Below, one piece after another: positions 1,221 through 40,745 of a stretch of 64,000 nt of DNA. The notes below the pieces were generated by a model. The model had not been told where the DNA came from. It did no database searches and worked only from the letters and a program-made list of their open reading frames with translations. The number at the start of each line of letters is the position of its first letter. The first letter of the stretch is position 1. The stretch is from a virus. Made by a program: the position numbers and the translations under genes. The DNA lies in UHGV virus genome UHGV-0279745; one strand, given 5' to 3'.

Positions 1221-1798
1221 TGGAACCGAGCACACAAGCACTACCCACTGAAATACTTGACTTATTGATCCAAGCTGGAAACAGAAAGTTAAGTAAAGAA
1301 CAGTCTGAACAGTTAACGAAACTCTTGAAAGCGGCGTATGGGGATGATGTCGATGTTGACGTCACCCGTTCGGGAACAAAGATTCTTTCCGACTTACGCC
1401 CGACGCTAATCGATAACTTAGGCAAACTGTCAGAACAATTCCATCAGCAGGCAACTGACGCTGTGGAATCTCTAGGGGATGAGATTAGCAAAGAAACCAT
1501 GCTAACCTTATGGCCGAAATTATCCGCTCCCCAGAAGTTCATTATTGCCCTCCTGACGTTAGCGACGGTTGTTGTAACCGGTTTCCTGGGTTACGACACG
1601 CATCAACATTTTCCAGAAGACAGTTTAGATGTTCTGATTGTGACGTTGGTACCGTTCTTTGCGTTGGTTGTTTTTGCGACTTGGCCGATTAAAACGTTGG
1701 CTTATAAGTCTCTTGAGATAGCCACAAAAGTTGTTGAGAAGAAGCTTGAGAAATCAGGCCAGCTTAAGTCGAAGACAGAAAGCCCAACAACGAAATAA
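1220..1798 (+). CDS. predicted membrane protein
   Basis: Two hydrophobic helix-length segments (FIIALLTLATVVVTGFLGY; LIVTLVPFFALVVFATW); TAATG overlap with upstream gene; terminator follows. Confidence 0.55.
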   Translation: MEPSTQALPTEILDLLIQAGNRKLSKEQSEQLTKLLKAAYGDDVDVDVTRSGTKILSDLRPTLIDNLGKLSEQFHQQATDAVESLGDEISKETMLTLWPKLSAPQKFIIALLTLATVVVTGFLGYDTHQHFPEDSLDVLIVTLVPFFALVVFATWPIKTLAYKSLEIATKVVEKKLEKSGQLKSKTESPTTK

Positions 1799-1802
1799 CA
1801 TT

Positions 1803-1842
1803 AACCTCTACCTTCGGGTAGAGGTTACTTCTTTTTATTTTT
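1803..1842 (+). terminator. rho-independent terminator
   Basis: Perfect 10-bp stem (AACCTCTACC/GGTAGAGGTT) with TTCG loop, then T-run. Confidence 0.75.
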
Positions 1843-1887
1843 ACAATTTTTAAACATACTGTGAGACTTAAAAGAAGGAGTGCTATT

Positions 1888-2541
1888 GTGGAACCATTAC
1901 GCTTAATGACCAGAACGTTACTGATACCTATTCAGGACCTGAAGGTTGGACCGTTGGTCACCTCTAATGGGGAAATTGTTGATTTCGTTAAAGAGGAAAA
2001 AATTCTTACGGCGGCTTTTCAAGAGACGCTCCATCGCTATTATCGTGCAGTACCTTTATCCGGCAGTCTAGATTGTCCGGGTGTAGAGGGGAGTACGTCT
2101 GCGTTAATAGCGGAGCATTTAGAAAAGAAAGGGTTTGGAGTCGGGAAAGGACAGGTTTTTGTAGACACTGTCACACTGAACAAATACCAAAACGACCTAA
2201 TGTTACAGATAAGGAGATTACTTGCCCGTTATGGTCTGTTCTCGATTAATTGTAAGTTTGACGACGTTCGGATGTTAGACCACGGTTTTACTACCAGCCT
2301 TAAAATCTGTCGTGGTAAAAGATTCATACAGTTTACCTGGTGGGTGCCGTCCCTACGTGGTGAGAGAAAAACAGTGGAGGGGTTGTACGGTTGGGCTTTA
2401 TGGGCCGAAGTTCCAGTAACGAAACTCGATGCGATTATTCCACAGCATCGAAACGTTCCACTTAGCAGTTTATTTACTTCTGGTGGGAACACCACGTGGG
2501 ATGAATTTGTTAAAAACGTTTTATCGATAGGGGAACAATAA
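1888..2541 (+). CDS. hypothetical protein
   Basis: ORF 1861-2541; start moved to GTG 1888, which sits 8 nt after AAGGAG (1874-1879). Confidence 0.5.
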   Translation: MEPLRLMTRTLLIPIQDLKVGPLVTSNGEIVDFVKEEKILTAAFQETLHRYYRAVPLSGSLDCPGVEGSTSALIAEHLEKKGFGVGKGQVFVDTVTLNKYQNDLMLQIRRLLARYGLFSINCKFDDVRMLDHGFTTSLKICRGKRFIQFTWWVPSLRGERKTVEGLYGWALWAEVPVTKLDAIIPQHRNVPLSSLFTSGGNTTWDEFVKNVLSIGEQ

Positions 2542-3017
2542 TGCAGCAGTTAGATATTACCGAAGACAAAATTTCCGCTAAATTTCCTGAATTACGTGAA
2601 TACGTCAAAGACTTAAATTCGATTCGGGAAACGCCAGTTAGAATCACGTTGGCTGTTGAAGACGATATTACACATGGGGTTGCAATCTGGGAGCCGGGGA
2701 ATCTTATCTACCTGGTAGTGGCCGAAGGTTCTCGACGTAGCGGTGTAGGTTCCTTTTTACTGAAATACGTTCAACTTAATTCAGATCGTCAAATGGTGAT
2801 GTGTCGTGTCCATCCCTCAAACATAGACGGGCTGTGTTTCTTTTCCAAAAAAGGCTTCCAAATAGACCGATGGTTTATTGCCAGTGACTCCCGTCGGTAT
2901 TTTCGTATGACGAACAGTAACGTTGATTCGTCATACGCCCCGCCGGAAGAAGGATATTTGGTGGATTTTATTGAAAACACCCCCATCTTTCTCTCTGTTG
3001 CGGATAAGATTTATTAG
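2541..3017 (+). CDS. GNAT-like acetyltransferase (putative)
   Basis: RRSGVGSFLLKYV resembles the GNAT acetyl-CoA binding motif (R-x-x-G-x-G/A). Confidence 0.4.
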   Translation: MQQLDITEDKISAKFPELREYVKDLNSIRETPVRITLAVEDDITHGVAIWEPGNLIYLVVAEGSRRSGVGSFLLKYVQLNSDRQMVMCRVHPSNIDGLCFFSKKGFQIDRWFIASDSRRYFRMTNSNVDSSYAPPEEGYLVDFIENTPIFLSVADKIY

Positions 3018-3036
3018 AAACAGTTGAGAGCCCAAA

Positions 3037-3516
3037 ATGATTCGTGTCGAATATGAGACGCGGTGCTTGGAAGGCAATAAAGCAAAAGTGTTACGTTGCG
3101 TTGAAGTTATCCCCGCACACGAGGTTGATTTACGTACAGGTCGTGTTCGGGGAGTTCCTGTAACGATACTACAACATAATCCTTGTTCGCAATTTAAAGA
3201 GAAGGCAACTCCAGCAGTACGTTCTCGTCGTCGAGAGGACTTTTCTGATCTCCGCAAATCTTTTACACGGCACTACCGACGCAGTAAATGGAAAGTGTTG
3301 GTATTAATTTTAGTGGACGATTTTATTAAAGACTTGGTTTGGGAGGAGGTGCTAAAAGAGCGCGGTTTTACACCCAAACCTTTCTCGTATCACTGGGAAC
3401 GTTTCAAAAAGAAATATCGTGAAGCGCTATGGTTTTCGCCGAACACACGGAATATGATTCCGCGCTTAGAGTCGATGCCATGGCTACGCGATCATCTTGA
3501 TGAGGTAGACCGATGA
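3037..3516 (+). CDS. hypothetical basic protein
   Basis: Long ORF in a co-directional array; no motif recognised. Confidence 0.5.
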   Translation: MIRVEYETRCLEGNKAKVLRCVEVIPAHEVDLRTGRVRGVPVTILQHNPCSQFKEKATPAVRSRRREDFSDLRKSFTRHYRRSKWKVLVLILVDDFIKDLVWEEVLKERGFTPKPFSYHWERFKKKYREALWFSPNTRNMIPRLESMPWLRDHLDEVDR

Positions 3517-4654: not shown

Positions 4655-5203
4655 ATGTATAAAATTGCTATTATTGGTTCTCGAGAAACGCCCGAAGACA
4701 CGATGCATGAAATGTTGGATGTGTTGCAACGTGGGTTCAAAATTCTTCGTAATAAACAGCACAGTATCGAAACGCGGTCAGGCGGTTGTTACAAAGGACC
4801 AGACCAATTACAGTTTATGTTAGCACGTACTGAACCAGGTCCACATATTTGTTATTTGCCTGACGAACGTAAGTTGTGGTTACGTAAGTTACATCCGAAA
4901 GTGGATTTTCGCGTTATTCCACAAGACGTCCGTTATCGTGGGATTGTGGCATCGCTTCACCCTAATCCTGATAAGCTATCGGAAATAGCTTGGGCGTTGC
5001 ATGGACGAAACTTAAATATTGTATCCGGTGATTCTTTGGACGATCATGTAGACGCCGTCTATTATTACGCCGAGCATGATAAAAAGGGAAATCCAAAAGG
5101 GGGTACGGCGATGGGTGTTCGCTACGCACAGTCACTGAACATCCCTTGTTATTATCATGTTACGGATGCATCTAAGTGGTTAGAAGACCTACGCTTATTA
5201 TGA
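4655..5203 (+). CDS. SLOG/DprA-like Rossmann-fold protein (putative)
   Basis: IAIIGSRE...RSGGCYKGPDQ resembles the DprA/Smf/LOG (SLOG) nucleotide-binding core; weak, motif level only. Confidence 0.4.
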   Translation: MYKIAIIGSRETPEDTMHEMLDVLQRGFKILRNKQHSIETRSGGCYKGPDQLQFMLARTEPGPHICYLPDERKLWLRKLHPKVDFRVIPQDVRYRGIVASLHPNPDKLSEIAWALHGRNLNIVSGDSLDDHVDAVYYYAEHDKKGNPKGGTAMGVRYAQSLNIPCYYHVTDASKWLEDLRLL

Positions 5204-5253
5204 AGTTAGTCAGGGCGGGCTTCTCCCCGCTTTAGCTTAAAATGGGGTAAAGG

Positions 5254-6387
5254 ATGTCAACATTAGATTCCGATTTAGAAGTCCTTTGCGATGACTACGA
5301 TCGATTGGTCGCGTTAGAATCGCTTAATGTTAAAGACAATTATCCGGCGGTTGTCGCTATCCGAAAACGGTGGGCTTTAGATGATGTCCACGTTGCGTTG
5401 GAGTCTGCAGCGATGATGGAACGCGCGCAATTTGTTGCGGACACCGAACCTTACGCAGGGGTAGGTAAAGCGGTCGCACGCGCGACCGGCAGAGCGGTTA
5501 AGGGAGTTGGACGCGTTGCTGGAAAAGCAGCAGTGGCAGGAGCCAAAGCGTCTGGAAAATTCGCAGGTAAACATTCTAAGCAATTGGCCTTACGTTTTAT
5601 CGACTTCGCGGAAGCCGCCGGTAAAGAAGTTATTAATGAACTGAAAGAAGCGACGTCCAAAGCATCGTCGTTAGAGCGCAAGCTACAGAAGTTAGAAGCA
5701 CGTTTAAGTTTACTCGGTATCAAGGACACTTTAGAACCGGTTGACTGTGACACGGGAAGTTGGACAACCAAAGTTTGTTTAGAAGACAAGCCTAACGTAA
5801 AAGCATGTATTGAGTTCAGTAAGAACCTGAGTGCAATGGATGCGATGGTCAACGAGTATACCGTTAAAACACGTACGTTAATCGGTAAGAGCAAGAAAGT
5901 TACCGAGAGCGGTTTGGAGAAAGTGGGCCGGTCAACGAACTGGGCGATTAAACGAAGCGCAGGGCTGTTCGGTATTATCGATCCGTTTAAAACGGTGAAG
6001 GCATATCCGTGGCCAGGTAACGTGGTGGTCGTTGAACACAACAACGGTAAGATTGAGTGGGCGATTGCCCGCGATGGTGATTTTGGTCACACAATCAAAT
6101 CTCTAAACTTGCACGAAATCGGTTCAGCTCTCGACGCCGTTAGAAACATTATCCGAGCGTTACGTCAGCGTGGTACGAAACGGCGTAGTGTTGGTTATAC
6201 CGGTATTTACGATGAAATTCAACGTATGCGTAAGGAACTTAAGTCGCTTGAAGGGCGGGAGTTACGCGACGCTACCGTACGTTATAAAAACGCACTGCGT
6301 TTAGAAGATGCGTTTACTACCTCGTTAGTGCGCGTTGCGGAAGGGTTACTGGAGTGGTGCAGGTTGTCACTGATTGAGGTTAAATAA
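5254..6387 (+). CDS. hypothetical protein (Ala/Gly/Lys-rich N-terminal half, coiled-coil segment)
   Basis: 377-aa ORF; no catalytic motif recognised. Confidence 0.55.
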   Translation: MSTLDSDLEVLCDDYDRLVALESLNVKDNYPAVVAIRKRWALDDVHVALESAAMMERAQFVADTEPYAGVGKAVARATGRAVKGVGRVAGKAAVAGAKASGKFAGKHSKQLALRFIDFAEAAGKEVINELKEATSKASSLERKLQKLEARLSLLGIKDTLEPVDCDTGSWTTKVCLEDKPNVKACIEFSKNLSAMDAMVNEYTVKTRTLIGKSKKVTESGLEKVGRSTNWAIKRSAGLFGIIDPFKTVKAYPWPGNVVVVEHNNGKIEWAIARDGDFGHTIKSLNLHEIGSALDAVRNIIRALRQRGTKRRSVGYTGIYDEIQRMRKELKSLEGRELRDATVRYKNALRLEDAFTTSLVRVAEGLLEWCRLSLIEVK

Positions 6388-18634: not shown

Positions 18635-19156
18635 GTGATAGCGCGACTTGCGAGTTGGTTTAAGCAACGTCGGGCAAAGGCGGTCGAATGGCCGCCTATT
18701 ACGCACGATGAAAAGGTGGTTGCTTTTCTGAACTATAACAAAGACTTGAAAAGATTAGGCGAGTTAATGCGCTTAACGGAACGTCAGGTTTTTGCTAAGA
18801 TTTCAAGCAGCGCGTTACGTAAAGAAGTGTTCCCACACTTATCCTTTATGGAACAAATCCATGCTGAAAGTGTGGAGAAATTTCTTTCGTTAGTAAATAA
18901 TGAGACTCCACGAATACGGTACTCGGTTACGGATTCATCTGATGCTGTCGGTACGGTCGATTTCGGACGATTGTATCAGAGCATTAAAGACGTGGGCCAT
19001 ATACATGTTAAACGAGTATCAGAAACATCTGTAGTGATTTATCACCATACTGAGCATGATTTGTTAGGGTGCGTTATAACACTAACAAATTTACATAGTT
19101 TTTACGTTGATTTACTTACAGGGTTTTATCCAGAACCATGGTGTTTTATACGATGA
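18635..19156 (+). CDS. hypothetical protein
   Basis: 173-aa ORF with GTG start. Confidence 0.5.
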   Translation: MIARLASWFKQRRAKAVEWPPITHDEKVVAFLNYNKDLKRLGELMRLTERQVFAKISSSALRKEVFPHLSFMEQIHAESVEKFLSLVNNETPRIRYSVTDSSDAVGTVDFGRLYQSIKDVGHIHVKRVSETSVVIYHHTEHDLLGCVITLTNLHSFYVDLLTGFYPEPWCFIR

Positions 19157-19362
19157 AAAGAGCTAATGGATACATCATCTCAGCGATTGTTTCAACCGTG
19201 CTGGTTGTGACGATGCTGATGTTTTATGTCCGTGTGTCAGATGACTCGCGCAAAGAAAGCCTTTATCGTGAGTGTATGTCAGGAAAGACCGTAGACGATC
19301 CACGTTACGCCGAATTAGTAATGGCGTGTACGGAATACGCTAAACGAATGGGAGATGGATGA
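19138..19362 (+). CDS. small membrane-anchored protein (paralog 1 of a pair)
   Basis: One hydrophobic helix (YIISAIVSTVLVVTMLMFYV) then LYREC...C domain, paralogous to the next ORF. Confidence 0.45.
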   Translation: MVFYTMKRANGYIISAIVSTVLVVTMLMFYVRVSDDSRKESLYRECMSGKTVDDPRYAELVMACTEYAKRMGDG

Positions 19363-19559
19363 TGAAAATTTGGTTGCCGATTCTAGTTTTTATCCTTATC
19401 GCAGGTGCACTAGCAAGTGCTGAGTACGATAATCGTGTTCTAGAAACAAAACGTGAATTGTATCAGGATTGTATAAAGGATTACACACCCGGTACAGAGC
19501 TTCATGCACAGGCTGTGAAAAGTTGTGCGTTGATGGCTGAATCGCAGACTCGTTCCTAA
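19359..19559 (+). CDS. small signal-peptide/membrane protein (paralog 2 of a pair)
   Basis: N-terminal MMKIWLPILVFILIAGALASA then LYQDC...C, paralogous to the previous ORF. Confidence 0.45.
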   Translation: MMKIWLPILVFILIAGALASAEYDNRVLETKRELYQDCIKDYTPGTELHAQAVKSCALMAESQTRS

Positions 19560-19960: not shown

Positions 19961-20005
19961 CCTACCGCCCGATTCTATGGGCGGTAGGTGTTTTTATTTT
20001 TTTTG
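19961..20005 (+). terminator. rho-independent terminator
   Basis: CCTACCGCCC-gattctat-GGGCGGTAGG followed by a T-run. Confidence 0.75.
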
Positions 20006-20020
20006 ATCTGGGAGGTTTTA

Positions 20021-20581
20021 GTGACTACTTACGTACCTGATTTAAGTCTGGCCTCAGCCGAATTAGTGGTCGCTTTAATCAACCACGATAACGGTTCACG
20101 GTTGTCTCTAAACGAAATCCGTATTAGCAACACTATGGCAAACCCGTCCCCGACCACTTCGCGTCGTAACACACTGACAGAGATTACAAAAATCAGGAAA
20201 CCTGATGGTGCTTCTGTGGTTGTTTATTACGACCGTCTGGATGCGGACGAAGTGTTAGCGTCTGAACCTATTTTGATTTCGTTAGACGGTACTGAAGACA
20301 ACCTTCGTGACATTTTAGGTGTTGTAAATGAATTCTGCGGAACGAACTTACAACCCGAAGATTTACGTGCTGCAGATATCACCTTAGGTAACGAACCCAT
20401 TGCTGTTAACGTTGCTGACGATTCTCCTGCGTGGATGAATGCGTTCATGGTAACGTTATTCGATACAACAGAACGAGCATTAGCAAACGAAGATGATGCG
20501 ATCTTCTGTATTGGTGATGATGCCGTTCTTACCTTTGAGGTTCCAGATGACGATTCAGCTGAAGAAAACCCGGCTACATGA
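20021..20581 (+). CDS. family-X paralog (fibre-associated hypothetical protein)
   Basis: Start placed at GTG 20021, 5 nt after GGAGG; the ORF-track start 19988 lies in the terminator. N-terminus VPDLSLASAELVVALINHD and ...VVVYYDRL match five other paralogs. Confidence 0.55.
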   Translation: MTTYVPDLSLASAELVVALINHDNGSRLSLNEIRISNTMANPSPTTSRRNTLTEITKIRKPDGASVVVYYDRLDADEVLASEPILISLDGTEDNLRDILGVVNEFCGTNLQPEDLRAADITLGNEPIAVNVADDSPAWMNAFMVTLFDTTERALANEDDAIFCIGDDAVLTFEVPDDDSAEENPAT

Positions 20582-20783: not shown

Positions 20784-23700
20784 ATGGCTAAAGCGGTAAA
20801 GAAAATTCGTTTACACGATTTACGTCCATACACCGGGGATATCGGTGAAGGCGTTTTACTTTTTTCGAAAGACGAAAGGGATTATCAGTTACCTGTCCGC
20901 GAGATTGTTGCGGATATTGACACCGTCAGAAACGCGGTTGCTGACGCACAAACGGCGGCGGCCAAATCGCAACAGTCTGCAACAGAAGCCACACAAGCAA
21001 AAGACTTAGCAGAAACAGCGAAGCAACAAACTGACACGTTAGCTTCCACAGTTAGCGAGCAAGCGGGAACCGTTGCCACTAAAACTGCCGAGGTTAGCAA
21101 AAAACACGCTGAAGTTTTAGCCGCGAAAACTGCCGTAGATACTGTATTACAGTCGGTAAATGAGAAAGCTCAAGCTGTCGCTACAAGCGAACAATCGGTG
21201 ACGGCTGCAGCGGCTGACGTAACTAAGAAAGCAGAAACGGTTACGCAACAGGCCGGACAAGTCCAACAGACGGCTACCGGTGTCGAGAATACTGCGGCTT
21301 CAGTTGAGGCCAGTAAGGGCGCAGTGGAGAAGATTGCTGCACAGGTCGCGAAAGATAAAGAAAGTTCAGAAGGCGCAGCAACACGTTCGGAGTCAGCTGC
21401 CTTACGTGCGGAGAAAATCGCTGCGCAGGGCTTAATCGACGCTAGTACAACCGGTAAAGGTATCGTTAAACTTAACGATACACTGACTAGCGAATCCGTG
21501 ACTGAGGCCGCCACACCGTCCACGGTTAAACAGCTGAATGACGAATTACAGTTAAAAGCCAATAAACATTCGCCGAATTTTACGGGTAAACCGTCATCCC
21601 CAACACCCCCGAAAGATTCAAACGACACGAGTATTTCCACAACGGCCTGGGTGCGTGACGCGATTGCGGAACTGGTTGGTTCTTCACCCGAGACGTTAAA
21701 TACCTTAGCGGAATTAGCTGAGGCGTTAGGTAATGACCCTAACTTCGCAACAACGATTACTGGGGAACTTGCGCAGAAACAACCTCTCAGTCCGTTGCTC
21801 ACCGCCATTGCCGCAGTCACCACAGCGGCAAATAAACTCATGTATTTCACTGGCAGTAATAAAGTCGGATTAACGGATTTTACAGAAACTGCCAGATCCT
21901 TGTTAGCGAAAGGGTCAACTGCGGATATCATCAATTTCTTGGGATTAAAGGCTACTGTAGATAAAGCGAATGGCGCGTTACAGAAAAACTCTAACGGCGC
22001 TGATATCCCAGATAAAGAAACGTTTGCTCGCAATATCGGTCTGTCTCCTGACACCTATCTGCGTTTCCGTGGCGAAATGCCAGTAGATGCTGATATTAAC
22101 ACATTTGCTCCAGATGCCAATTACACAGGAACGTGGGCTAAGTCGACGTCAACCAATGCGTCGATGGCAAAACATTTCCCAGAAGACGGTGCAGTCGGTT
22201 ATCTGGAAGTGTATAAAGCCGGTAATTACAGTGGCGCACAGCGTTTTACCTGCCGTAATGGTAACGTGTACAACCGTATGCTGAGTGGCGCGTGGAATGG
22301 TGCCAATGGACCCTGGTCACCGTGGAGAATGGTAACTACTGGTGTACGTCCATTATCTACCTCTATAGACTTGAACAGTTTGGGTGGCGCTGAGCATATG
22401 GGTAACTGGCGAAACTCAAGCAGTTCGCTGGCTGTTTTTAGCAGACATTACCCTGAAGAAGGTGGCGGTGCGCAAGGCGTACTAGAAGTAATGGAAGGTG
22501 GTCTTTTCGGACGGTTGCAGCGATACACCACACGTCGTGGTACGATGTATGTTCGTGGTTTGACCGCAACGTGGGATTCATCAAACCCGCAATGGGAAGA
22601 TTGGATTCAGGTTGGTTATCAGACTGACGGTGCTTTCTTTAAAGCCAATTTTAACGATCTCGTTAAACCGGGACGTTTCAGTGTCACTGGTGAAGCAACT
22701 AACGGTCCACTTACCGGTTCTTCTGGTGAAACCATATTAGGCGTTTGTGAAGTTACCTTACGCTTAGACGGTACAGGGGTCGAACAGAATTATACTACAT
22801 ACGGTACGGGTACAGAAACTAAAGGTCGTAAATTCCAACGTATCCGTACGGGTAACGCTTGGAGTGACTGGCGTGAGGTTTTCACATCGTATTCGCTTCC
22901 GTTGGTATTAGGTATCGGCGGTGAACGTGCGAATGTTGATCCTTTAGACTGGCAAACCTATGACTTTAAACCAGGTGAGTTAATCTGTACGCCGCTTAAC
23001 ACCATGAAAAATATTCCTACGGGAATGGATTGGGGTGTTATTGACGGTAACTTAGTTAGCATTCTGGTTGGTCCATCAGATGGCGCTACATCAGGCCGGA
23101 GTATGTTGGTTTGGCGTAGTACGGTGTCTACTGCCAACTATCGATTCTTTGCAGTACGTATCGCTGGTGATAAAGGTAGTCGTACGATTACACCACGCCA
23201 GATGCCTGTATTGAATGCAGCACACACCTGGGCAGAAAAACAGACCTTTGCAAAAGGGTTAGCAGGTGAGTTAACAGGCAATGCTTCAACCGCAACGAAA
23301 TTAAAGACCGCACGTAGAATTGGTGGGGTCGCCTTCGACGGTAGTGGTGATATTAACCTCCCAGGTGTTAACCAACAGGGTAATCAAAACACCACGGGTA
23401 ATGCCGGGACAGCCACTAAACTTCAAACTGCCAGAAATATTAACGGTGTGAGATTCGATGGTTCTGCTGACATCAATATCAACACCCTGGTAGGTCGTGG
23501 TCGGGTTACTGCACTAACCGGTTCAAACAAAGGTACGCCTGGTATTCAGATGTACGAAGTTTACAATAACGGTTATCCGACCGCTTATGGTAACTTACTG
23601 CATTTGGGTGGTTCTGCCGCATTAGGTGAAGGTGAACTGTTAATCGGTTGGTCGGGCACGAGTGGTGCGCACGCGCCCGTTTATATTCGTAGTCGACGTG

Positions 23701-25385
23701 ATACAGCGGATGCGCCGTGGTCAGATTGGGCACAAGTTTATACTGCCCGTGATAGTATTCCTGGTGTAAATACCACAGGTAATCAAGATACTACTGGTAA
23801 CGCTGCTACCGCGACGAAACTGAAAACTGCTCGCAGAATCGGGGGCGTTACCTTTGACGGTACTGGGGATATCAATTTACCGGGGGTTAACCAGCAAGGT
23901 AACCAGAATACGACAGGTAATGCAGCAACCGCTACTAAGTTACAAACAGCACGTAAGATCGGCGGTGTTAACTTTGACGGTTCGCAAGACATTAGTCTGC
24001 CCGGTGTGAACCAAACCGGTAACCAATCGACTACGGGGAATGCTGCGACAGCGACTAAGCTCCAGACTGCGCGAAATATAGGTGGCGTAGCTTTTGATGG
24101 TACTAAAGACATCAACTTACCTGGCGTAAACCAAACGGGCAATCAGTCGACCACCGGAAACGCGGCCACTGCAACAAAATTGCAGACAGCGCGTACCATT
24201 AACGGTATCGCATTTGACGGCACCAAAAACATCGAAATAACGGCTGAAAGTTTAAATCTTGGCCAAACTGTAGAATTGGCCGGTGGGTCATTGCAGAAGA
24301 AACAGAATGGTGCCGATATTCCAGATAAGAGAAAATTCTTACGAAATGTTGGTGCCGCGAACACAACAACTGTGTCTTTTAATGGTGGTGCCGGATGGTT
24401 CAAACTGGCAACTGTAACGATGCCGCAAGCCAGTTCCGTGGTTTACATAAGCCTGATTGGTGGTGCAGGGTTTAACGTTGGTTCCCCACATCAAGCAGGT
24501 ATCTCTGAGCTGGTTCTGCGCGCAGGAAATGGGAATCCAAAAGGTATTACTGGTGCGTTATGGCGACTGACCTCAGTCGGCTTCACTAATTTTGCATGGG
24601 TGAATACATCTGGTGACACTTACGATATTTATGTTGAAATAGGTAATTACGCCACCGGTGTTAATATTCAGTGGGATTACACTAGTAATGCCAACGTAAC
24701 GATTCATACATCGCCAAGTTATACGGCTAATAAACCCGCAGGACTAACAGACGGTACCGTCTATCTGATTTACAGCACACACAACAAGCCTAACGCTGGT
24801 GACATCGGTGCGTTACCGTCAGGGGGCGGTACTATAGGTGGCGATTTAACCGTTAACGGTAAATTGGTCACTAAGTACCCTGATTTTCGAATCGCTTACG
24901 GCAACTACGGCTTTATGTTACGTAACGATGGTGCCAATACCTATTTCTTAGTAACCGACGCCGGTCAAGCTGCAACGGGTTCCTGGAACGGTCTACGTCC
25001 GTTGTATTTTAATAATGCTAACGGTCAAGTAACCTTTGGTCATAACGTTACTGGCAGCGGTAACGGTTCGTTTAACGACGTACAGATTCGTTCTGACCGT
25101 CGTAACAAACGTAATCTGGTGAAACTAGATAAAGCTTTGGATCGGTTAGAGTTACTAACCGGTTATTTGTACGAAATTCAGCATCCTGACGACGGCTGGC
25201 AGACCTCTGTAGGTCTAATTGCTCAAGACGCATTAGAAGCGTTACCTGAACTTGTGTCTGAGGATGATGATGTCATTTCAGGCGAAAAACGTTTACGTCT
25301 AAACTACAATGGTGTTATTGCGCTGTTAGTAGAGGGTATGAAAGCGTTGCGTCAAGAGATTAACGAAATCAAAGGGAGATCCTAG
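20784..25385 (+). CDS. long tail fibre protein with C-terminal intramolecular chaperone (S74-like) domain
   Basis: 1533 aa: Ala/Thr/Gln-rich N-terminal region, six 40-aa repeats (GNQxTTGNAATATKLQTAR..GV.FDG..DINLPGVNQ), and C-terminal SDRRNKRN...GLIAQDALEALPELV resembling the autoproteolytic chaperone domain of endosialidase-type fibres. Confidence 0.88.
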   Translation: MAKAVKKIRLHDLRPYTGDIGEGVLLFSKDERDYQLPVREIVADIDTVRNAVADAQTAAAKSQQSATEATQAKDLAETAKQQTDTLASTVSEQAGTVATKTAEVSKKHAEVLAAKTAVDTVLQSVNEKAQAVATSEQSVTAAAADVTKKAETVTQQAGQVQQTATGVENTAASVEASKGAVEKIAAQVAKDKESSEGAATRSESAALRAEKIAAQGLIDASTTGKGIVKLNDTLTSESVTEAATPSTVKQLNDELQLKANKHSPNFTGKPSSPTPPKDSNDTSISTTAWVRDAIAELVGSSPETLNTLAELAEALGNDPNFATTITGELAQKQPLSPLLTAIAAVTTAANKLMYFTGSNKVGLTDFTETARSLLAKGSTADIINFLGLKATVDKANGALQKNSNGADIPDKETFARNIGLSPDTYLRFRGEMPVDADINTFAPDANYTGTWAKSTSTNASMAKHFPEDGAVGYLEVYKAGNYSGAQRFTCRNGNVYNRMLSGAWNGANGPWSPWRMVTTGVRPLSTSIDLNSLGGAEHMGNWRNSSSSLAVFSRHYPEEGGGAQGVLEVMEGGLFGRLQRYTTRRGTMYVRGLTATWDSSNPQWEDWIQVGYQTDGAFFKANFNDLVKPGRFSVTGEATNGPLTGSSGETILGVCEVTLRLDGTGVEQNYTTYGTGTETKGRKFQRIRTGNAWSDWREVFTSYSLPLVLGIGGERANVDPLDWQTYDFKPGELICTPLNTMKNIPTGMDWGVIDGNLVSILVGPSDGATSGRSMLVWRSTVSTANYRFFAVRIAGDKGSRTITPRQMPVLNAAHTWAEKQTFAKGLAGELTGNASTATKLKTARRIGGVAFDGSGDINLPGVNQQGNQNTTGNAGTATKLQTARNINGVRFDGSADININTLVGRGRVTALTGSNKGTPGIQMYEVYNNGYPTAYGNLLHLGGSAALGEGELLIGWSGTSGAHAPVYIRSRRDTADAPWSDWAQVYTARDSIPGVNTTGNQDTTGNAATATKLKTARRIGGVTFDGTGDINLPGVNQQGNQNTTGNAATATKLQTARKIGGVNFDGSQDISLPGVNQTGNQSTTGNAATATKLQTARNIGGVAFDGTKDINLPGVNQTGNQSTTGNAATATKLQTARTINGIAFDGTKNIEITAESLNLGQTVELAGGSLQKKQNGADIPDKRKFLRNVGAANTTTVSFNGGAGWFKLATVTMPQASSVVYISLIGGAGFNVGSPHQAGISELVLRAGNGNPKGITGALWRLTSVGFTNFAWVNTSGDTYDIYVEIGNYATGVNIQWDYTSNANVTIHTSPSYTANKPAGLTDGTVYLIYSTHNKPNAGDIGALPSGGGTIGGDLTVNGKLVTKYPDFRIAYGNYGFMLRNDGANTYFLVTDAGQAATGSWNGLRPLYFNNANGQVTFGHNVTGSGNGSFNDVQIRSDRRNKRNLVKLDKALDRLELLTGYLYEIQHPDDGWQTSVGLIAQDALEALPELVSEDDDVISGEKRLRLNYNGVIALLVEGMKALRQEINEIKGRS
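23265..23483 (+). repeat. tandem 120-bp (40-aa) repeat block 1 within the tail fibre gene
   Basis: Two units encoding G(E/N).(T/N)TGNA.TATKL.TAR.I.GV.FDGS.DIN.... Confidence 0.8.
23778..24240 (+). repeat. tandem 120-bp (40-aa) repeat block 2 within the tail fibre gene
   Basis: About four consecutive units GNQ(D/N/S)TTGNAATATKLQTAR.IGGV.FDG..DI.LPGVNQ. with high DNA-level identity. Confidence 0.85.
25091..25382 (+). other. C-terminal intramolecular chaperone / autoproteolysis domain of the tail fibre
   Basis: SDRRNKRN...LTGYLYEI...GLIAQDALEALPELV matches the conserved pattern of endosialidase-type C-terminal chaperone domains as recalled. Confidence 0.7.
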
Positions 25386-35605: not shown

Positions 35606-36454
35606 ATGTCTCTTACGTCAAAACAGAAACTGCTAAAACTCATCAACACTGAAAACAATATTGTTCCGCCATTGACCTTCAGTGATGTTGATATCGGCGA
35701 ACCTACTGGTACTAGGGTTGATACCCAGGTGGTTCTGACTTCTAAACTCAAAGGCGATGAGTCTACTACTTTAACAGTGACTTACCATCGTCGTAATTTG
35801 CCCGAATACCTAACAGGTGAATTGGTATTCGGTAACGACGGTGTTGTAACCGCTACAGATTTGCTTAATGCAATCAACGCAAAATACGATTTAAATATCC
35901 TGCCGTCGGATATCGTTGATGCGAAAGTTGAAGGTGAAACCCATCAGCTTACCGCTAACGAGAAATCCTACGAATGGTGTGGCGAGGTGACACTTACGCT
36001 ACGCGATCCTATTGATCTGGCTAAACTGTTACCTGTTACTCAATTAGAAAACCTGGTAGAGTATCCGTCCACTAAGAAAGGTAACGCAGCGGTTTATTCT
36101 TATCCAATTGACTTCACCGCAGAAAAAGATTACCTCGATCCGATTACCATTAACGACACTGTCGACCTGGCTGAGTTAGCCACTAAACTGGTCAACGTCG
36201 TTGATGAGAAATGGGTAAGCGTACCTAAAAACGCTGCTAATAACCTCTACGGTGCTAAGGTTATCTACGATGGCCCTACCGCAGGTTACGAAGGTGCAAA
36301 TACGAAGTACACGCGTGTGCTGGTACTCGCACTCAGTGGACTGTGTGCTAACCTGACCGGTAATCTGTTAATCCACTTTAACGGTACCGATCGTCCGAAG
36401 TCGAAGATTGAATTAGCTAAAACTAATTCGGTCTTACCGGGATTCTTAGATTAA
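35606..36454 (+). CDS. family-X paralog (putative virion-associated protein)
   Basis: N-terminal KLINTENN...LTFSDVDIGEP...TLTVTYHRRNL matches the family-X signature. Confidence 0.55.
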   Translation: MSLTSKQKLLKLINTENNIVPPLTFSDVDIGEPTGTRVDTQVVLTSKLKGDESTTLTVTYHRRNLPEYLTGELVFGNDGVVTATDLLNAINAKYDLNILPSDIVDAKVEGETHQLTANEKSYEWCGEVTLTLRDPIDLAKLLPVTQLENLVEYPSTKKGNAAVYSYPIDFTAEKDYLDPITINDTVDLAELATKLVNVVDEKWVSVPKNAANNLYGAKVIYDGPTAGYEGANTKYTRVLVLALSGLCANLTGNLLIHFNGTDRPKSKIELAKTNSVLPGFLD

Positions 36455-36467
36455 GAGGATTACAGTA

Positions 36468-36944
36468 ATGACCAGTCAAGAAACTATCTTCGACCTTATT
36501 AAAAAGGCTAACCCAGACGCTGAGCTTGACACCGCCAAAGTTACATTGGGTGAGCCCGTCGTAAGTACCGGTGCGTACAACACCGAAGTTACGGTTGCGT
36601 CAATTAAGAATCTCGGTTATGCTAATAAGCAAACGTTCCAGTATAACCGCATCGATGCAGGTTTGTATTTCCTCAACGTATTGCCGAAACTGTTAGTTGA
36701 ATCAGCCACCACGACTGCGGACCTGTTGCCTGTAATTAACGAACAATATGGCTTAACCCTTACTGAAGACGACGTATGGGTAGAGCAGGTTGGTGAGTTA
36801 CCGCTGGACGGCAGCGCAATCGAGCACGGCATTTTCTTCCGTCCTGAGTGCCTAACCTGGGTCGGTGGTTTTACAGTGCGCGTTGCGCGTAAACCGACTG
36901 TTGAAACACCGCCAGCTAATCCATCGCGCGCTAAGAAGAAATAA
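36468..36944 (+). CDS. family-X paralog (putative virion-associated protein)
   Basis: DLIKKANPDAELDTAKVTLGEP...TFQYNRID matches the family-X signature; terminator follows. Confidence 0.55.
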   Translation: MTSQETIFDLIKKANPDAELDTAKVTLGEPVVSTGAYNTEVTVASIKNLGYANKQTFQYNRIDAGLYFLNVLPKLLVESATTTADLLPVINEQYGLTLTEDDVWVEQVGELPLDGSAIEHGIFFRPECLTWVGGFTVRVARKPTVETPPANPSRAKKK

Positions 36945-36947
36945 CGA

Positions 36948-36984
36948 CAGGGTGGGGTAATCCCACCCTCTTTTCTTTTTTTGT
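36948..36984 (+). terminator. rho-independent terminator
   Basis: AGGGTGGG-gtaat-CCCACCCT followed by a T-run. Confidence 0.75.
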
Positions 36985-37005
36985 GTAAAAGAGGAGTTAA
37001 ACAAA

Positions 37006-37596
37006 ATGGCCGAACGTTGGACTAAAGAAGGTATTATTGCTTCGAAAACAGATTTAGAAGGAGGGTACGTAAACGACCCTGACGATAAAGGTGGGGAAAC
37101 CTGTCACGGTGTAACACTAACAACTGCACGCGAATACGGGTATAAAGGGAGAATGAAGGATCTGACCCGTGCGCAGGCGTTTGATATTTACGATCGCGGT
37201 TGGTGGAAGAAACTTAAACTCGATGAGATTTTAGCTATCTCACCCTTACTCGCAGACCGGATGTTTGATTTTGCTATTAACTCTGGCCGCGTTAACTGTG
37301 TGAAATCGTTACAACGTATTCTGAACGTTTTAAATAACGAAGGGAAACTTTACGCAGATATTGACACTGATGGCGGTATGGGACCTAAAACGCTAGGTGC
37401 CCTGAATGCTTATCTGAATTACCGTAAAGACGAGGGGTTAGGCATCTTAATCTTTGCCTTAATCTCACACCAGGTAACTTACTACACAGAAATCTCCGAA
37501 AAGCGTAAGAAGAATGAAAAATTCGCTTACGGTTGGTATGCGCGTGTGTTCAGGGAAATGCCGGATTATGTGGCGAAGGCGGGGTTAGTAAAATGA
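37006..37596 (+). CDS. GH108-family lysozyme-like peptidoglycan hydrolase (putative endolysin)
   Basis: N-terminal KTDLEGGYVNDPDDKGGETCHGVT matches the GH108 signature (EGG..D..D.GG.T..G[IV]T) as recalled. Confidence 0.7.
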   Translation: MAERWTKEGIIASKTDLEGGYVNDPDDKGGETCHGVTLTTAREYGYKGRMKDLTRAQAFDIYDRGWWKKLKLDEILAISPLLADRMFDFAINSGRVNCVKSLQRILNVLNNEGKLYADIDTDGGMGPKTLGALNAYLNYRKDEGLGILIFALISHQVTYYTEISEKRKKNEKFAYGWYARVFREMPDYVAKAGLVK

Positions 37597-37697
37597 ACTG
37601 GTTTGCTAAACTCTTAGCACTATTGTGGAAAGCGTTAACGTCTGGACGGAAACGTAAAGACGAAAAGCGTGGGTACGAATTTTTCTGGTTTCTATAA
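37593..37697 (+). CDS. 34-aa amphipathic/basic peptide, translationally coupled to the lysozyme gene
   Basis: ATG 37593 overlaps the lysozyme TGA (ATGA); translates to MNWFAKLLALLWKALTSGRKRKDEKRGYEFFWFL; below the ORF-track size cutoff. Confidence 0.3.
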   Translation: MNWFAKLLALLWKALTSGRKRKDEKRGYEFFWFL

Positions 37698-37712
37698 GGG
37701 AAGGTGTGGGTA

Positions 37713-38378
37713 ATGGAGAAGCTTCAATATAAACGTTTAGACAATAAGTGGTTTGTATTAACGGAGGATTACCATTATCCGTTTACGTTACGTGAAATTT
37801 ATCACGACCACGTACACTTAGACCGTGCGGTTTATTTAACGGGTGTATTGCCTGACACACAACTGTGGTTAACGGCACCGAAAGGGTTCGTTACCGATTT
37901 AGCGTCGATTCCTGAACACCTCCAGGGAATTTTCCATCCTGACGGGCCGTGGGCACCTGCGGCCTGCATTCACGACCTACTCTATCAAAAATGCAGTACG
38001 GAACGTAGCTATCCCATGACACCGGGTGGTAACGTTTCGCGTATTATCGACAAAGAGTTTTCTGACTTAACGTTCCTGCGTATTATGCAGTCGTTAGAAA
38101 TCTCGCCTTATATCTGCCAAACATTTTATAAGGCCGTCGTTGAATTCGGCTGGGATTCCTACGTAGATCCTAATGCAAAGCCATCCTACAACACTAACGC
38201 GTTTCGTACGTTAGATTATAATCGAAACTATTTATTCGTTCGCGAGTTTAAGGAACCTGCAATCCCTGACCACGAACGTATTGATATCACCACAGATCAG
38301 CCCGTTAATGTCAAATACCTGAACATCAAACGTGCTTTTCTGTCTGGGAGGGAAGATGTTTCATCCAAATCCGAGTAA
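37713..38378 (+). CDS. DUF1353-like protein
   Basis: GFVTDLASIPEHL...ACIHDLLY resembles the DUF1353 signature (F.TDGASIP...HD.LY); ATG 37713 preferred over GTG 37704. Confidence 0.45.
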   Translation: MEKLQYKRLDNKWFVLTEDYHYPFTLREIYHDHVHLDRAVYLTGVLPDTQLWLTAPKGFVTDLASIPEHLQGIFHPDGPWAPAACIHDLLYQKCSTERSYPMTPGGNVSRIIDKEFSDLTFLRIMQSLEISPYICQTFYKAVVEFGWDSYVDPNAKPSYNTNAFRTLDYNRNYLFVREFKEPAIPDHERIDITTDQPVNVKYLNIKRAFLSGREDVSSKSE

Positions 38379-38871
38379 CTTTAAACTCAAAGAGTTAGTA
38401 CCACAGTCTTATATTGCCAAATACGGCGATTCTGCAATTCGGTTTATGAATCCGTTGTTAATGATTTCGCTACAACAGATTCGTAACCGTTTCGGTAGAA
38501 TGGTGATTAACTCGCCTGCTGCGCAACAGCGTGGCCTAAGAACCTTAGACTTTTTCATCAACCAAGAAAAGCCTAAAGGCGGTAACTATAAACAACGTGC
38601 TTTACAACTCTACTCTGATTCGGGGAGTCAGCACAAGTTCGGTAATGCGATTGATGCAACGTTGTTGGACAGTACCGTAAAGCAGGTTCACGACTACATC
38701 GCCGCTAACCCTGATGAGTTTCCGTTCATTCACTTTATTGAATGCGACATCAGTTGGTTACACATCGACGTTCGTAACCAACCTAACATTACTTTCTGGT
38801 CACCAAATCGAGGTACTGTGAAAGTGGTTAAGCAAAAACCAATCGACTGGAGCTCCTTAGTCGAGATTTAA
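38356..38871 (+). CDS. peptidase M15-like (zinc D,D-/L,D-peptidase fold) cell-wall hydrolase (putative)
   Basis: SGSQHKFGNAIDAT and SWLHIDVRN resemble the M15 zinc-ligand motifs (SxHxxGxAxD ... H.D); ATG 38356 follows GGGAGGGAAG. Confidence 0.5.
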   Translation: MFHPNPSNFKLKELVPQSYIAKYGDSAIRFMNPLLMISLQQIRNRFGRMVINSPAAQQRGLRTLDFFINQEKPKGGNYKQRALQLYSDSGSQHKFGNAIDATLLDSTVKQVHDYIAANPDEFPFIHFIECDISWLHIDVRNQPNITFWSPNRGTVKVVKQKPIDWSSLVEI

Positions 38872-38954
38872 CTATTTCTAAGGTGTTTATACCTTATTTT
38901 GTATAAAGACGCTTAGAATGCGTTCTACGCACGATTTGACGGTTAAAATGAATA

Positions 38955-38990
38955 TACCCTACTCCTTATCGGGAGTAGGGTAGTTTTTAT
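38955..38990. terminator. terminator between convergent genes
   Basis: ACCCTACTCC-ttatcg-GGAGTAGGGT followed by TTTTTAT on the plus strand. Confidence 0.65.
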
Positions 38991-39469
38991 TATTCCGCAG
39001 GATGGAGCATTGTTCCGGTGTCAGGAGCTACACCTTCTTTACAGTGGAAGAAAGTAATGCCTTTACCATCACCCGTTTTATATTCTAAAGTAGAATACGC
39101 AAACGTTGGTGTTTTTGAAAGTAACCCATTTACACGGTAGTAACGTTGCCCCGTGATAGGATCGATATTTCCATTAACTTTACCTAATAAATCTTTATAA
39201 AGTTGGGGTGACTCAATCTTACCATTTGGCCAAGTGGCTACCCAGTTAGCGCCAGTATCGATCACAGTTACTGAACCTAACATTAGGTTAGTCGAACTAA
39301 CGACAGGTTTGTAATTTACAAAATCCTGCTCTACACCCATACAGGTGTAAATAACCATGTCGTGTGGCTCTACGGGTACAGTTGAGAATTGGCCGTTAGC
39401 GGTGGGTTGTAAAGCACATCCTGCTAATGAAAAAACACCAACCATAGCGATAAGAAAACGTTTTAGCAT
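38990..39469 (-). CDS. lipoprotein (signal peptide with lipobox LAGC)
   Basis: MLKRFLIAMVGVFSLAGCALQP has a type II signal peptide/lipobox; start trimmed from the ORF-track 39529 to ATG 39469. Confidence 0.6.
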   Translation of the reverse strand: MLKRFLIAMVGVFSLAGCALQPTANGQFSTVPVEPHDMVIYTCMGVEQDFVNYKPVVSSTNLMLGSVTVIDTGANWVATWPNGKIESPQLYKDLLGKVNGNIDPITGQRYYRVNGLLSKTPTFAYSTLEYKTGDGKGITFFHCKEGVAPDTGTMLHPAE

Positions 39470-39607: not shown

Positions 39608-40144
39608 ATGGCTAAAGCTTTCAATCTGCAGCTCATTGAAGCTGTTAAAGCTAAAAACCCAGACACTGCGTCTAAACTGACCGTAGAAGACGTTGATTTT
39701 GGCGCTGTTGCTGCGTTCAGCGGCAAATCTGGACGTAATACTAAAATTACGCTGACTGCAAAAGAAAAAAGTGCTAACTTTACCGGCAGCAAAGAATTCC
39801 ATTATATCCGTCTGGCATCCCAAGACCTGATCGGTGCTAAAGCTTACCAGCAGGAAGGTAGCCTCGAACTGGAAAACGCTGCCATTGTAGCCAAACTGAA
39901 CGAAGAGATGGTTACTAAAGGTTATGTAGATGACGCGTTTGCAGAAGGCGAACTCACCATCGAAAAATCTGATGGCGAAAGCGGTGCTAAAGTTTACACC
40001 GTTAAAGTAAACGATGCGCACATCAAATTCTTAGCCGGTACCATTGCCACCTTCACCTATACCAACCCGGTTCCTCCGAAGGTAGCTCTGAGCGGCCTGG
40101 AAGGTGAACTGGATAGCTTCACCGCTCCGGGTATCGGGGGCTAA
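39608..40144 (+). CDS. family-X paralog with high-expression codon usage (putative abundant virion protein)
   Basis: Family signature (TKITLTA...FHYIRL); strongly biased codon choice (CTG, CCG, GGT/GGC, CGT, AAA, GAA) unlike neighbours. Confidence 0.65.
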   Translation: MAKAFNLQLIEAVKAKNPDTASKLTVEDVDFGAVAAFSGKSGRNTKITLTAKEKSANFTGSKEFHYIRLASQDLIGAKAYQQEGSLELENAAIVAKLNEEMVTKGYVDDAFAEGELTIEKSDGESGAKVYTVKVNDAHIKFLAGTIATFTYTNPVPPKVALSGLEGELDSFTAPGIGG

Positions 40145-40214
40145 GTAAGTTAAATCGGGGAGGGGGTAACCTCCCCGATATTTCTTTAACTCGTACTATT
40201 AAGGATTTAAGATA

Positions 40215-40745
40215 ATGGCAGCTACTAACCAGATGATGTTGGTCGCGCTTTATAATGCTGCTAACACTGAGCTACCACATCAGATTACTGATAAAGAAGT
40301 GTCCTTTGGTCTCCCTACTGCGCTGGAAGGCGAAGGTAAGAATACCAAAGTTACCATGACTGCACTGCCGGGTTCTGAGAATTTCAAAGGCGCAATCGAA
40401 CTGAAATACGATCGTCTGGAGCCGGGTGTTGTAGGTCGTATTGAGCTAACTGACGATCTGTCTCGCTGGGTTCAAGAAAATGAACTGCGCGCTTGGTTAC
40501 AATATTACATCAACAAAGTAAAACCTGACGACGCTATCGCACCAGCTGACGTTGTGTACAACACCGAAGACCAGAAAGACGAACATGAAAACGTCACTCT
40601 GCGTACCGTGACGTGCACCGTTACTGAAAGAAACCTCCGTTATAAACCAGGTGTAATGGCAACTTTCGTAATTACGCCGAAAGTTGTTGATAATCGTATT
40701 GACCTGGCCACCACCAACGGCGAGCTGGACGGTTTTACGTCCTAA
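40215..40745 (+). CDS. family-X paralog with high-expression codon usage (putative abundant virion protein)
   Basis: Family signature (TKVTMTAL...LKYDRL); similar codon bias; bidirectional terminator follows. Confidence 0.65.
   Translation: MAATNQMMLVALYNAANTELPHQITDKEVSFGLPTALEGEGKNTKVTMTALPGSENFKGAIELKYDRLEPGVVGRIELTDDLSRWVQENELRAWLQYYINKVKPDDAIAPADVVYNTEDQKDEHENVTLRTVTCTVTERNLRYKPGVMATFVITPKVVDNRIDLATTNGELDGFTS

Follow-up and report, generated by a model that had tools for sequence, protein, structure and literature searches.

Four genes packed end to end on the plus strand span positions 37006-38871 of a 64,000-nucleotide stretch of the UHGV virus genome UHGV-0279745, and the whole of that stretch is termed the window hereafter. 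A preliminary description made from the sequence alone had reported at this place a peptidoglycan-hydrolase cluster composed of a GH108 lysozyme, a peptide of 34 amino acids (aa), a DUF1353-like protein and an M15-like peptidase, and all four open reading frames (ORFs) were recovered at those coordinates with their families matched. More is learned from the DUF1353 protein, a predicted phospholipase A2 (PLA2), which together with the muramidase reproduces the TtsA/TtaP pair of the typhoid-toxin islet. We judge it fairly probable, from sequence comparisons, that the block is a candidate lysis module of an SPN3US-like jumbo phage, terminator-bounded, translationally coupled and made of the following four genes.

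37006-37596, plus strand: GH108 muramidase of 196 aa with Pfam, PHROG and PDB 6V40 matches; putative endolysin
37593-37697, plus strand: cationic peptide of 34 aa (net charge +5), MNWFAKLLALLWKALTSGRKRKDEKRGYEFFWFL; ATGA overlap and conservation
37713-38378, plus strand: DUF1353 protein of 221 aa (Pfam PF07087), assigned to the TtaP-class phospholipase A2 family
38356-38871, plus strand: divergent LAS/M15-type zinc peptidase of 171 aa; PHROG 894 match and invariant metal ligands

The first gene is preceded by a strong GAGGAG ribosome-binding site upstream of ATG 37006. The ATG of the peptide (37593-37595) overlaps the TGA of the muramidase (37594-37596) in the tetranucleotide ATGA, the stop of the peptide is separated from the start of the DUF1353 gene by 15 nt, and the peptidase gene overlaps the 3' end of the DUF1353 gene by 23 nt. 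Three features mark the limits of the block.

36949-36982, plus strand: intrinsic-terminator-like hairpin followed by a T-run, the 5' boundary; 9-bp stem, dG -15.5 kcal/mol, z -2.4
38955-38992, both strands: bidirectional terminator hairpin, the 3' boundary; 12-bp stem, dG -23.2 kcal/mol and z -5.8 on the plus strand, -20.8 and z -6.6 on the minus strand
38990-39469, minus strand: predicted outer-membrane lipoprotein of 159 aa (MLKRFLIAMVGVFSLAG|C) with the lipobox LAG|C

The 5' hairpin closes an upstream DUF7941 structural gene, the 3' hairpin is common to the block and the convergent lipoprotein gene, and a single weak terminator-like match (6-bp stem, 37909-37928) occurs between them. Taken together, the ATGA overlap, the 15-nt gap, the 23-nt overlap and the flanking terminators display the anatomy of one transcription unit with translational coupling. 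A sequence scan detected a signal sequence in none of the four products. Neither a lipobox nor a transmembrane domain (TMD) was found in any of the four ORFs, and the spanin combination of a lipobox lipoprotein and an inner-membrane TMD protein is thus missing from the block. As had been remarked beforehand of the two closely spaced hydrolase types, no transmembrane holin was seen between their genes in the window.

The region 36900-39000 (2.1 kb) gave no megablast match among 50,697 phage records. The proteins of the window are 60-79% identical to their counterparts in Salmonella phage SPN3US (Seoulvirus) and Erwinia phage Asesino (Erskinevirus), and its gene order is that of SPN3US at roughly 98-161 kb. 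Moreover, the same block was present on five IMG/VR contigs of 107-225 kb with protein identities of 89-96%, and the exact 34-aa peptide on 148 metagenomic contigs. On the basis of these identities, the gene order, the contigs and the metagenomic copies, the window is assigned to an uncultured SPN3US-like jumbo phage lineage. The DUF7941 paralogues around the block (35606-36944, 39608-40745 and 19988-20581), which match PHROG 1037/2935 'virion structural protein', correspond to a large paralogue family reported as SPN3US head proteins.

The three enzymes

The muramidase matched Pfam Glyco_hydro_108 (E=1e-23) followed by PG_binding_3 (E=1.6e-16), both above the gathering scores, as well as PHROG 315 'endolysin', and its homologues are annotated as endolysin in many phages. 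Searches of the PDB retrieved 6V40 (E=1e-44, residues 6-179) and 6V3Z (E=6e-43), deposited as PG_binding_3 domain protein and Sen1395, which we take to be the typhoid-toxin secretion muramidase TtsA and its paralogue. The EGGY motif near the N-terminus, whose Glu is the catalytic residue in GH108, was kept in the phage protein, where LEGGYVNDPDDKGGET is aligned to REGGYVDHPDDRGGPT of TtsA (6V40). An N-terminal hydrophobic segment, a signal or a signal-arrest-release (SAR) sequence was not found in the muramidase, which is therefore made in the cytoplasm. The product of 37006-37596 is accordingly classed by homology as a predicted TtsA-type GH108 muramidase, a close homologue of TtsA and a putative endolysin.

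The DUF1353 protein was recognized by Pfam PF07087 with 54.4 bits against a cut-off of 22.5 (E=1e-14, profile positions 17-91 of 91). The start supported by homologues is ATG 37713 rather than GTG 37704 or 37716; the alignment and the structure model were numbered from 37716, which places their residues one lower than in the full protein. Among 37 homologues, His87-Asp88 is invariant and Asp118 is at least 90% conserved (numbered from ATG 37713; H86/D87/D117 in the alignment), and these residues were matched to H70/D71/D85 of TtaP through the shared Pfam domain rather than by direct pairwise alignment. TtaP, the DUF1353 protein of the typhoid-toxin islet, was reported to be a phospholipase A2 (Gartly et al. 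2024, PMC11525133): lysates containing it cleave a fluorogenic sn-2 substrate and deplete phosphatidylethanolamine and phosphatidylglycerol, the D85A substitution abolishes activity in the fluorogenic assay, and the catalytic residues of group XIV PLA2s have their counterparts in H70, D71 and D85 (PMC11525133).

Sequence searches of the PDB with the DUF1353 protein, whether by single sequence or by profile, returned no significant match, and fold comparison alone gave one, in which the modelled helical core resembles group XIV secreted PLA2. This TtaP-sized core is flanked by a phage-specific N-terminal beta segment and a C-terminal extension. The phage protein lacks a signal peptide, which several bacterial homologues possess. 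The gene at 37713-38378 is thus predicted to encode a DUF1353/TtaP-class phospholipase A2 with intact catalytic residues.

The neighbourhoods of DUF1353 genes point in the same direction. In jumbo phages the gene lies at most three genes from a GH108 and/or LAS peptidase gene. The order in Fusobacterium phage JD-Fnp3 is M15 peptidase, a protein with hydrophobic N-terminal segments, DUF1353 and a small TMD protein, and that in Caulobacter phage DMCA is M15, an 88-aa lipoprotein and DUF1353; an amidase gene stands within three genes of DUF1353 in Fusobacterium phage Fnu1, and the endolysin gene overlaps DUF1353 in Pseudomonas phage Cygsa01, with a GDSL lipase upstream. Since DUF1353 adjoins endolysins of several annotated types in unrelated phages, a role in lysis is favoured over that of a tail assembly chaperone, the label carried by PHROG 1158 (E=5e-59 with the DUF1353 protein) and propagated as a product name in many GenBank records. 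No experimental source for this label was found in the literature searched, whereas PLA2 activity has been assayed for TtaP, the founder of the family, the catalytic residues vary little or not at all, the fold matches PLA2, and the neighbours in several lineages are endolysins rather than tail genes. It is hardly credible on these grounds that the protein is a tail assembly chaperone, which suggests that thousands of such labels on DUF1353 proteins are wrong.

As a separate observation, positions 301-3222 of the Cygsa01 contig (L028) carry a GDSL-like lipase, an unknown gene, DUF1353 and the endolysin in a row, and with the lipase this putative lysis neighbourhood would have two lipolytic enzymes.

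The last gene of the block gave no Pfam match even at E<=10, and NCBIfam and PADLOC yielded nothing useful. Despite this, the M15-like call of the preliminary description proved right. The ORF matched PHROG 894 'endolysin' (E=4.5e-28), Peptidase_M15_3 was matched by 13 of 25 family members (best 6.8e-8) and M15_4 by 10 of the 25, and R62, H93, D100, E129, H136 and D138 are invariant in the 25 homologues, where the pattern H-x6-D...H (H93-x6-D100...H136) is the LAS metal site. The structure model reached a pLDDT of 94.6, and the LAS fold was found for it by fold comparison, which alone worked; sequence searches of the PDB by single sequence or profile gave no significant match. The annotated endolysins of Vibrio phages of about 40 kb are distant relatives (27-30% identity). 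Seoulvirus, Phobos and contig L016 possess the gene, which is absent from Asesino, phiEaH2 and Machinavirus. The product of 38356-38871 is therefore predicted to be a LAS/M15 zinc peptidase whose metal ligands (H93, D100 and H136) are intact, and a putative second peptidoglycan hydrolase acting on the peptide stems.

The 34-aa peptide and the micro-ORF slot

At its N-terminus the peptide has a hydrophobic helix with Trp, followed by a basic centre and an aromatic C-terminus, and its net charge of +5 compares with +5 to +7 in relatives. The hydrophobic helix is about 17 residues long and has two Lys on one face, and the aromatic tail YEFFWFL is confined to the lineage of the window. In five related viral contigs the peptide is identical or nearly so: the alignment of the window with these contigs contains 14 variable nucleotide columns, distributed 3/2/9 over the codon positions, with three amino-acid changes, and a third-position bias was likewise displayed by the flanking genes. 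In the protein cluster of the peptide, which has 39 members, all 15 of the variants listed are exactly 34 aa long.

An ORF of 33-39 aa was found at, or a few nt before, the muramidase stop in SPN3US, STsAS, pEa_SNUABM_29, Asesino and phiEaH2, and aligns without gaps with the window peptide on the motif NWF..L....W[KR]AL....[RK][RK][RK]. With the SPN3US form, tblastn matches were obtained in 42 phage records. The claim of the preliminary description that the 34-aa ORF is not annotated does not hold everywhere, in that homologues have been deposited as hypothetical proteins (Asesino gp172 and phiEaH2 gp076) and the exact sequence as DAG31051.1; its position, sequence and ATGA overlap are as quoted there, and the lack of conservation in related phages, named in advance as a ground for rejection, was not observed. 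That the ORF is without function as a peptide, being a translational-coupling spacer or a chance ORF, is considered very unlikely. It is very short and belongs to no database family (nothing useful in Pfam, NCBIfam, PADLOC or PHROG), phmmer against 1.8 billion representatives returned only the peptide itself, and tblastn of the window peptide gave no match in isolate phages; against this stand the codon-position pattern of the variable sites, the constant length of the variants, and a motif and ATGA overlap that were kept where the flanking proteins are only about 60% identical. The comparisons argue that the 34-aa ORF is a real, conserved gene under purifying selection.

The preliminary description had ascribed to the peptide an amphipathic, Trp-rich N-terminus and a basic C-terminus suited to a membrane-active lysis accessory. 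The Trp content, the cationic charge and the hydrophobic N-terminal helix were confirmed, but N-terminal amphipathicity is modest: the hydrophobic moment of 0.45 is matched or exceeded by 33% of shuffles, by which strong amphipathicity was ruled out as the distinguishing trait of the peptide. On simple scales the window peptide is not like a transmembrane (TM) segment (KD17 0.85, rough summed Hessa dG 6.6), and the rough Hessa sum of the disruptin of phage phiKT is near it at 6.9. The homologues of SPN3US and Asesino are borderline, with Hessa sums of 3.5-4 from such simple scales. The peptide is plausibly a lysis accessory; its conservation speaks for that proposal, as do its position, size class, charge and low TM propensity, which recall the disruptin gp28.

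The slot between muramidase and DUF1353 is a hotspot of tiny membrane-type ORFs across the relatives. Seoulviruses harbor three consecutive overlapping micro-ORFs, namely the NWF cationic peptide, a DSGFFKLLRAIFxRRV cationic peptide and a DNDDWP+TMD peptide of about 30 aa with an acidic N-terminus, which were located by ORF reading as follows.

L001 (SPN3US), 5040-5324: micro-ORF trio
L023 (STsAS), 2495-2761: micro-ORF trio
L024, 2501-2758: micro-ORF trio

Erskineviruses carry the first two members of this trio, Machinaviruses one ORF of 44-49 aa with DDDPPP followed by a TMD, and contig L015 an ORF of 37 aa with a hydrophobic C-terminal helix, while the NWF peptide is the sole micro-ORF of the slot in the lineage of the window. 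No micro-ORF was found where DUF1353 has no adjacent GH108 gene (Phobos and contig L016), and the micro-ORF peptides therefore travel with the muramidase. It was also observed that the Seoulvirus micro-ORFs are mostly unannotated in SPN3US and STsAS.

Two fusions involving the peptide were considered and rejected. The peptide and DUF1353 ORFs share a frame, separated by one TAA and five codons (37593-38378). A fusion of the two by stop-codon read-through was discarded: here the starts share a frame at a distance of 120 nt, but in SPN3US (292 nt) and Asesino (167 nt) the frames differ. Since it is not conserved in either phage, the shared frame is probably coincidental. A fusion with the muramidase by -1 frameshift was likewise discarded, as no slippery site is conserved across the lineages.

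The lysis reading and its alternatives

Five known systems were compared with the block. In one of them, the typhoid-toxin islet, TtsA is necessary but not sufficient for toxin release, and the outer membrane must also be perturbed, for instance by cationic antimicrobial peptides or bile salts (typhoid-toxin literature). The block muramidase is close to TtsA, the DUF1353 protein belongs to the Pfam family of TtaP with the same His-Asp/Asp residues, and in neither system is the muramidase considered sufficient on its own, each needing something to perturb the outer membrane; the phage block encodes homologues of TtsA and TtaP plus its own cationic peptide. In contrast with the block, the islet is PhoPQ-regulated and serves toxin release without lysis, TtaP consists of the 125-aa core only whereas the phage protein of 221 aa has the extra N-terminal beta and C-terminal segments, and neither a cationic micro-ORF nor a LAS peptidase has been described among the five genes of the islet.

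The closest functional precedent for the 34-aa peptide is the phiKT disruptin gp28, which complements a lambda spanin defect. Both are small cationic peptides without signal, lipobox or predicted TMD (56 aa and +7 for gp28, 34 aa and +5 here), and both genes directly follow the endolysin gene with a start that overlaps its 3' end (by 8 nt for gp28, by ATGA here). The two share no detectable sequence similarity (a BLASTP match of 16 residues, E=13). The window peptide, which has an aromatic C-terminus, exceeds gp28 in hydrophobicity but not in length. A neighbouring 4-TMD holin is encoded in phiKT, which lacks a phospholipase, and function has been demonstrated for gp28 only.

The cassette of phiKZ resembles the block in its clustered lysis genes and comes from a nucleus-forming jumbo phage of the same broad group; it differs by an SLT endolysin in place of GH108 and contains neither a DUF1353 PLA2 nor a cationic micro-ORF, while the block lacks a holin, an i-/o-spanin pair and a regulator like gp143. 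In mycobacteriophages, with lysin A (LysA) and lysin B (LysB), a peptidoglycan hydrolase is likewise paired with a lipid-ester hydrolase. LysB is, unlike the PLA2 family, a cutinase-like esterase on mycolyl-arabinogalactan, with a fold and substrate unrelated to a PLA2 acting on Gram-negative phospholipids. LysB attacks the outer lipid layer as the last step of lysis. The patatin cassette of Wolbachia phage WO is a proposed lysis cassette that combines a phospholipase A2 with a small protein resembling a holin, and a GH108 lysozyme occupies the same slot in its relatives. Patatin and DUF1353 have unrelated folds, the phospholipase of phage WO stands in place of the GH108 enzyme instead of beside it, and the cassette is likewise putative.

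Read as a lysis module, the combination would most likely have two enzymes degrade the wall and a cationic peptide and a phospholipase attack the membrane. Lacking signal sequences, all four products would build up in the cytoplasm late in infection, and the inner membrane would be breached by the peptide, by a holin encoded elsewhere or, in relatives, by the TMD-bearing micro-ORFs of the same slot. The muramidase would then cut the glycan strands and the LAS peptidase the peptide stems. Secreted PLA2s generally need Ca2+, and the phage PLA2 may be held inactive by a latch of this kind, which we infer, in the Ca2+-poor cytoplasm; after release it would split membrane phospholipids into lysophospholipids and fatty acids. 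The cationic peptide may bind anionic lipid or lipopolysaccharide, as the phiKT disruptin does, and both together would destabilise the outer membrane, which is the step of the spanins in canonical cassettes.

A wider proposal is put forward tentatively, as one that may well prove wrong: the PLA2 and the fast-evolving membrane-active peptides of 27-50 aa, co-translated with a TtsA-type muramidase, might replace the spanins and possibly also the classical holin in SPN3US-like lysis, and TtsA/TtaP might be a domesticated remnant of such a module. The biological role of TtaP has not been established, and outer-membrane perturbation for toxin release is the guess preferred by its authors (PMC11525133); if the proposal were true, this would be the missing function of TtaP.

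Several points weigh against the lysis reading, and some of them also feed its rivals. No holin was found in the block, and for the window peptide no stable TM helix is predicted. Deletion of TtaP gave no detectable envelope or secretion phenotype in S. Typhi (PMC11525133). Six sampled DUF1353 contexts (Vibrio pVa-21 type, RSL2, Arash, Eowyn, a Helicobacter prophage and contig L012) showed no hydrolase nearby, so that the association with endolysins is frequent and not universal. Moreover, the block is embedded among DUF7941 virion structural paralogue genes, which would suit a virion-borne entry kit, in which the LAS peptidase, the PLA2 and/or the muramidase are packaged and digest wall or membrane locally at genome delivery. 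Parvoviruses use viral PLA2s for entry. The idea is further favoured by the 'tail assembly' labels on DUF1353, by the detection of the Arash DUF1353 protein gp82 in a 'structural proteome', and by the SPN3US LAS homologue gp158, with 2-3 spectra in whole virions and none in tailless particles. The same group later judged gp158 in virions to be probably non-specific, however, and the Arash preparation also held ribonucleotide reductase and kinases and is therefore not virion-specific. The SPN3US proteins gp156 and gp157 are unmentioned in the main text of both proteome papers, and the accessible part of the supplementary files of the 2016 paper contains no mention of gp156-159. The block products are small single-domain enzymes without structural or attachment domains, and small phages have relatives of the LAS peptidase as their annotated endolysins. 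We therefore regard the entry kit as unlikely, and a virion-borne role as a minority possibility mainly for the LAS peptidase; the earlier suggestion that one of the two hydrolases is virion-associated keeps the weak backing of the gp158 spectra and loses ground to the same objections.

The true lysis genes may instead lie elsewhere, with the block as an accessory that serves, for example, wall or membrane remodelling of the enlarged cell or lysis from without. In SPN3US (NC_027402.1), a 240-aa SLT transglycosylase with a signal peptide is encoded at 175058-175780 (Pfam SLT 1.4e-6) and an 86-aa protein with two TMDs two genes downstream at 176428-176688, which make 175058-176688 an unannotated candidate SAR-endolysin/pinholin-like pair, and further lipobox ORFs occur at 165783-166184 and 180497-180976. 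In phiKZ, a more distant relative, the endolysin is an SLT enzyme (gp144) within a canonical cassette that includes the gp141/141.1 spanins, the class III holin gp142 and the regulator gp143. The M15-like gene is, in addition, evolutionarily dispensable, being absent from Asesino and Machinavirus. Against this, RefSeq names no holin or spanin anywhere in SPN3US, the GH108-DUF1353 pair with its micro-ORFs is conserved in Seoulvirus, Erskinevirus, Machinavirus and uncultured lineages, and in small phages with only one lysis cassette DUF1353 is found together with endolysins, so a location elsewhere is held to be improbable. The SLT/two-TMD region lies outside the part of the SPN3US genome matched by the window, and a related-locus search with it found SPN3US itself only. 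A further alternative leaves the block its lysis role and casts the peptide as a miniature holin or inner-membrane permeabiliser, like the pore-forming type I toxin-antitoxin toxins of about 30 aa, which would release the signal-less enzymes and leave the outer membrane to the PLA2 and/or the lipoprotein. A hydrophobic N-terminal helix followed by a highly charged basic segment is the generic layout of holins, the peptide is the sole membrane-active candidate among products without export signals, the slot ORFs of Machinavirus and contig L015 (37-49 aa) have a hydrophobic C-terminal helix and Seoulvirus has an extra 30-aa TMD ORF, and the rough insertion energy of the SPN3US and Asesino peptides is near that of TisB. 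The two Lys in the helix and the scale values given above nevertheless predict no TM segment, every known holin is larger with at least one bona fide TMD, and the similarly non-TM phiKT disruptin works without holin function; a miniature holin seems somewhat unlikely.

The lysis reading of the block is thus retained, and the interpretation of the preliminary description is partly supported, to which the PLA2 family of the DUF1353 protein, the TtsA homology and the selection on the peptide are added here. Each part of the block belongs to a known family. In the literature searched, lysis in the SPN3US group of jumbo phages is undescribed, as are the muramidase/peptide/PLA2 combination and an envelope disruption by lipolytic enzyme and peptide in SPN3US-like jumbo phages; a 2026 jumbo-phage review leaves holins and spanins unmentioned. 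The conserved module of muramidase, micropeptides and PLA2, with or without the LAS peptidase, offers candidates that are genetically testable because SPN3US has an amber-mutant system. The block would add a candidate lipolytic route to outer-membrane disruption in Gram-negative hosts and would tie phage lysis to TtaP, whose part in typhoid-toxin biology is unexplained. Cationic lysis peptides and a small disulfide-free PLA2 likewise hold interest as enzybiotic adjuncts.

Other loci in the window

The convergent 159-aa lipoprotein is the sole lipobox ORF in the 64-kb window, and its gene is syntenic with the block in every relative examined (SPN3US, Asesino, Machinavirus and contig L015). It matched PHROG 9559 of unknown function, and no PDB, Pfam, NCBIfam or PADLOC match, partner i-spanin or C-terminal TMD was found for it. 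It could be a non-canonical lysis or exclusion factor.

Two overlapping plus-strand ORFs at 19138-19362 and 19359-19559 (74 and 66 aa) each have a TMD or a signal-like segment at the N-terminus, after which comes a soluble part that contains Cys. They belong to no PHROG or Pfam family, are candidate membrane proteins and might be holin/antiholin-like. Further downstream on the plus strand, 20784-25385 encodes a tail-fibre-like protein of 1533 aa with Phage_fibre_2 repeats, a T4 gp34-type trimerisation domain and a C-terminal Peptidase_S74 intramolecular chaperone domain.

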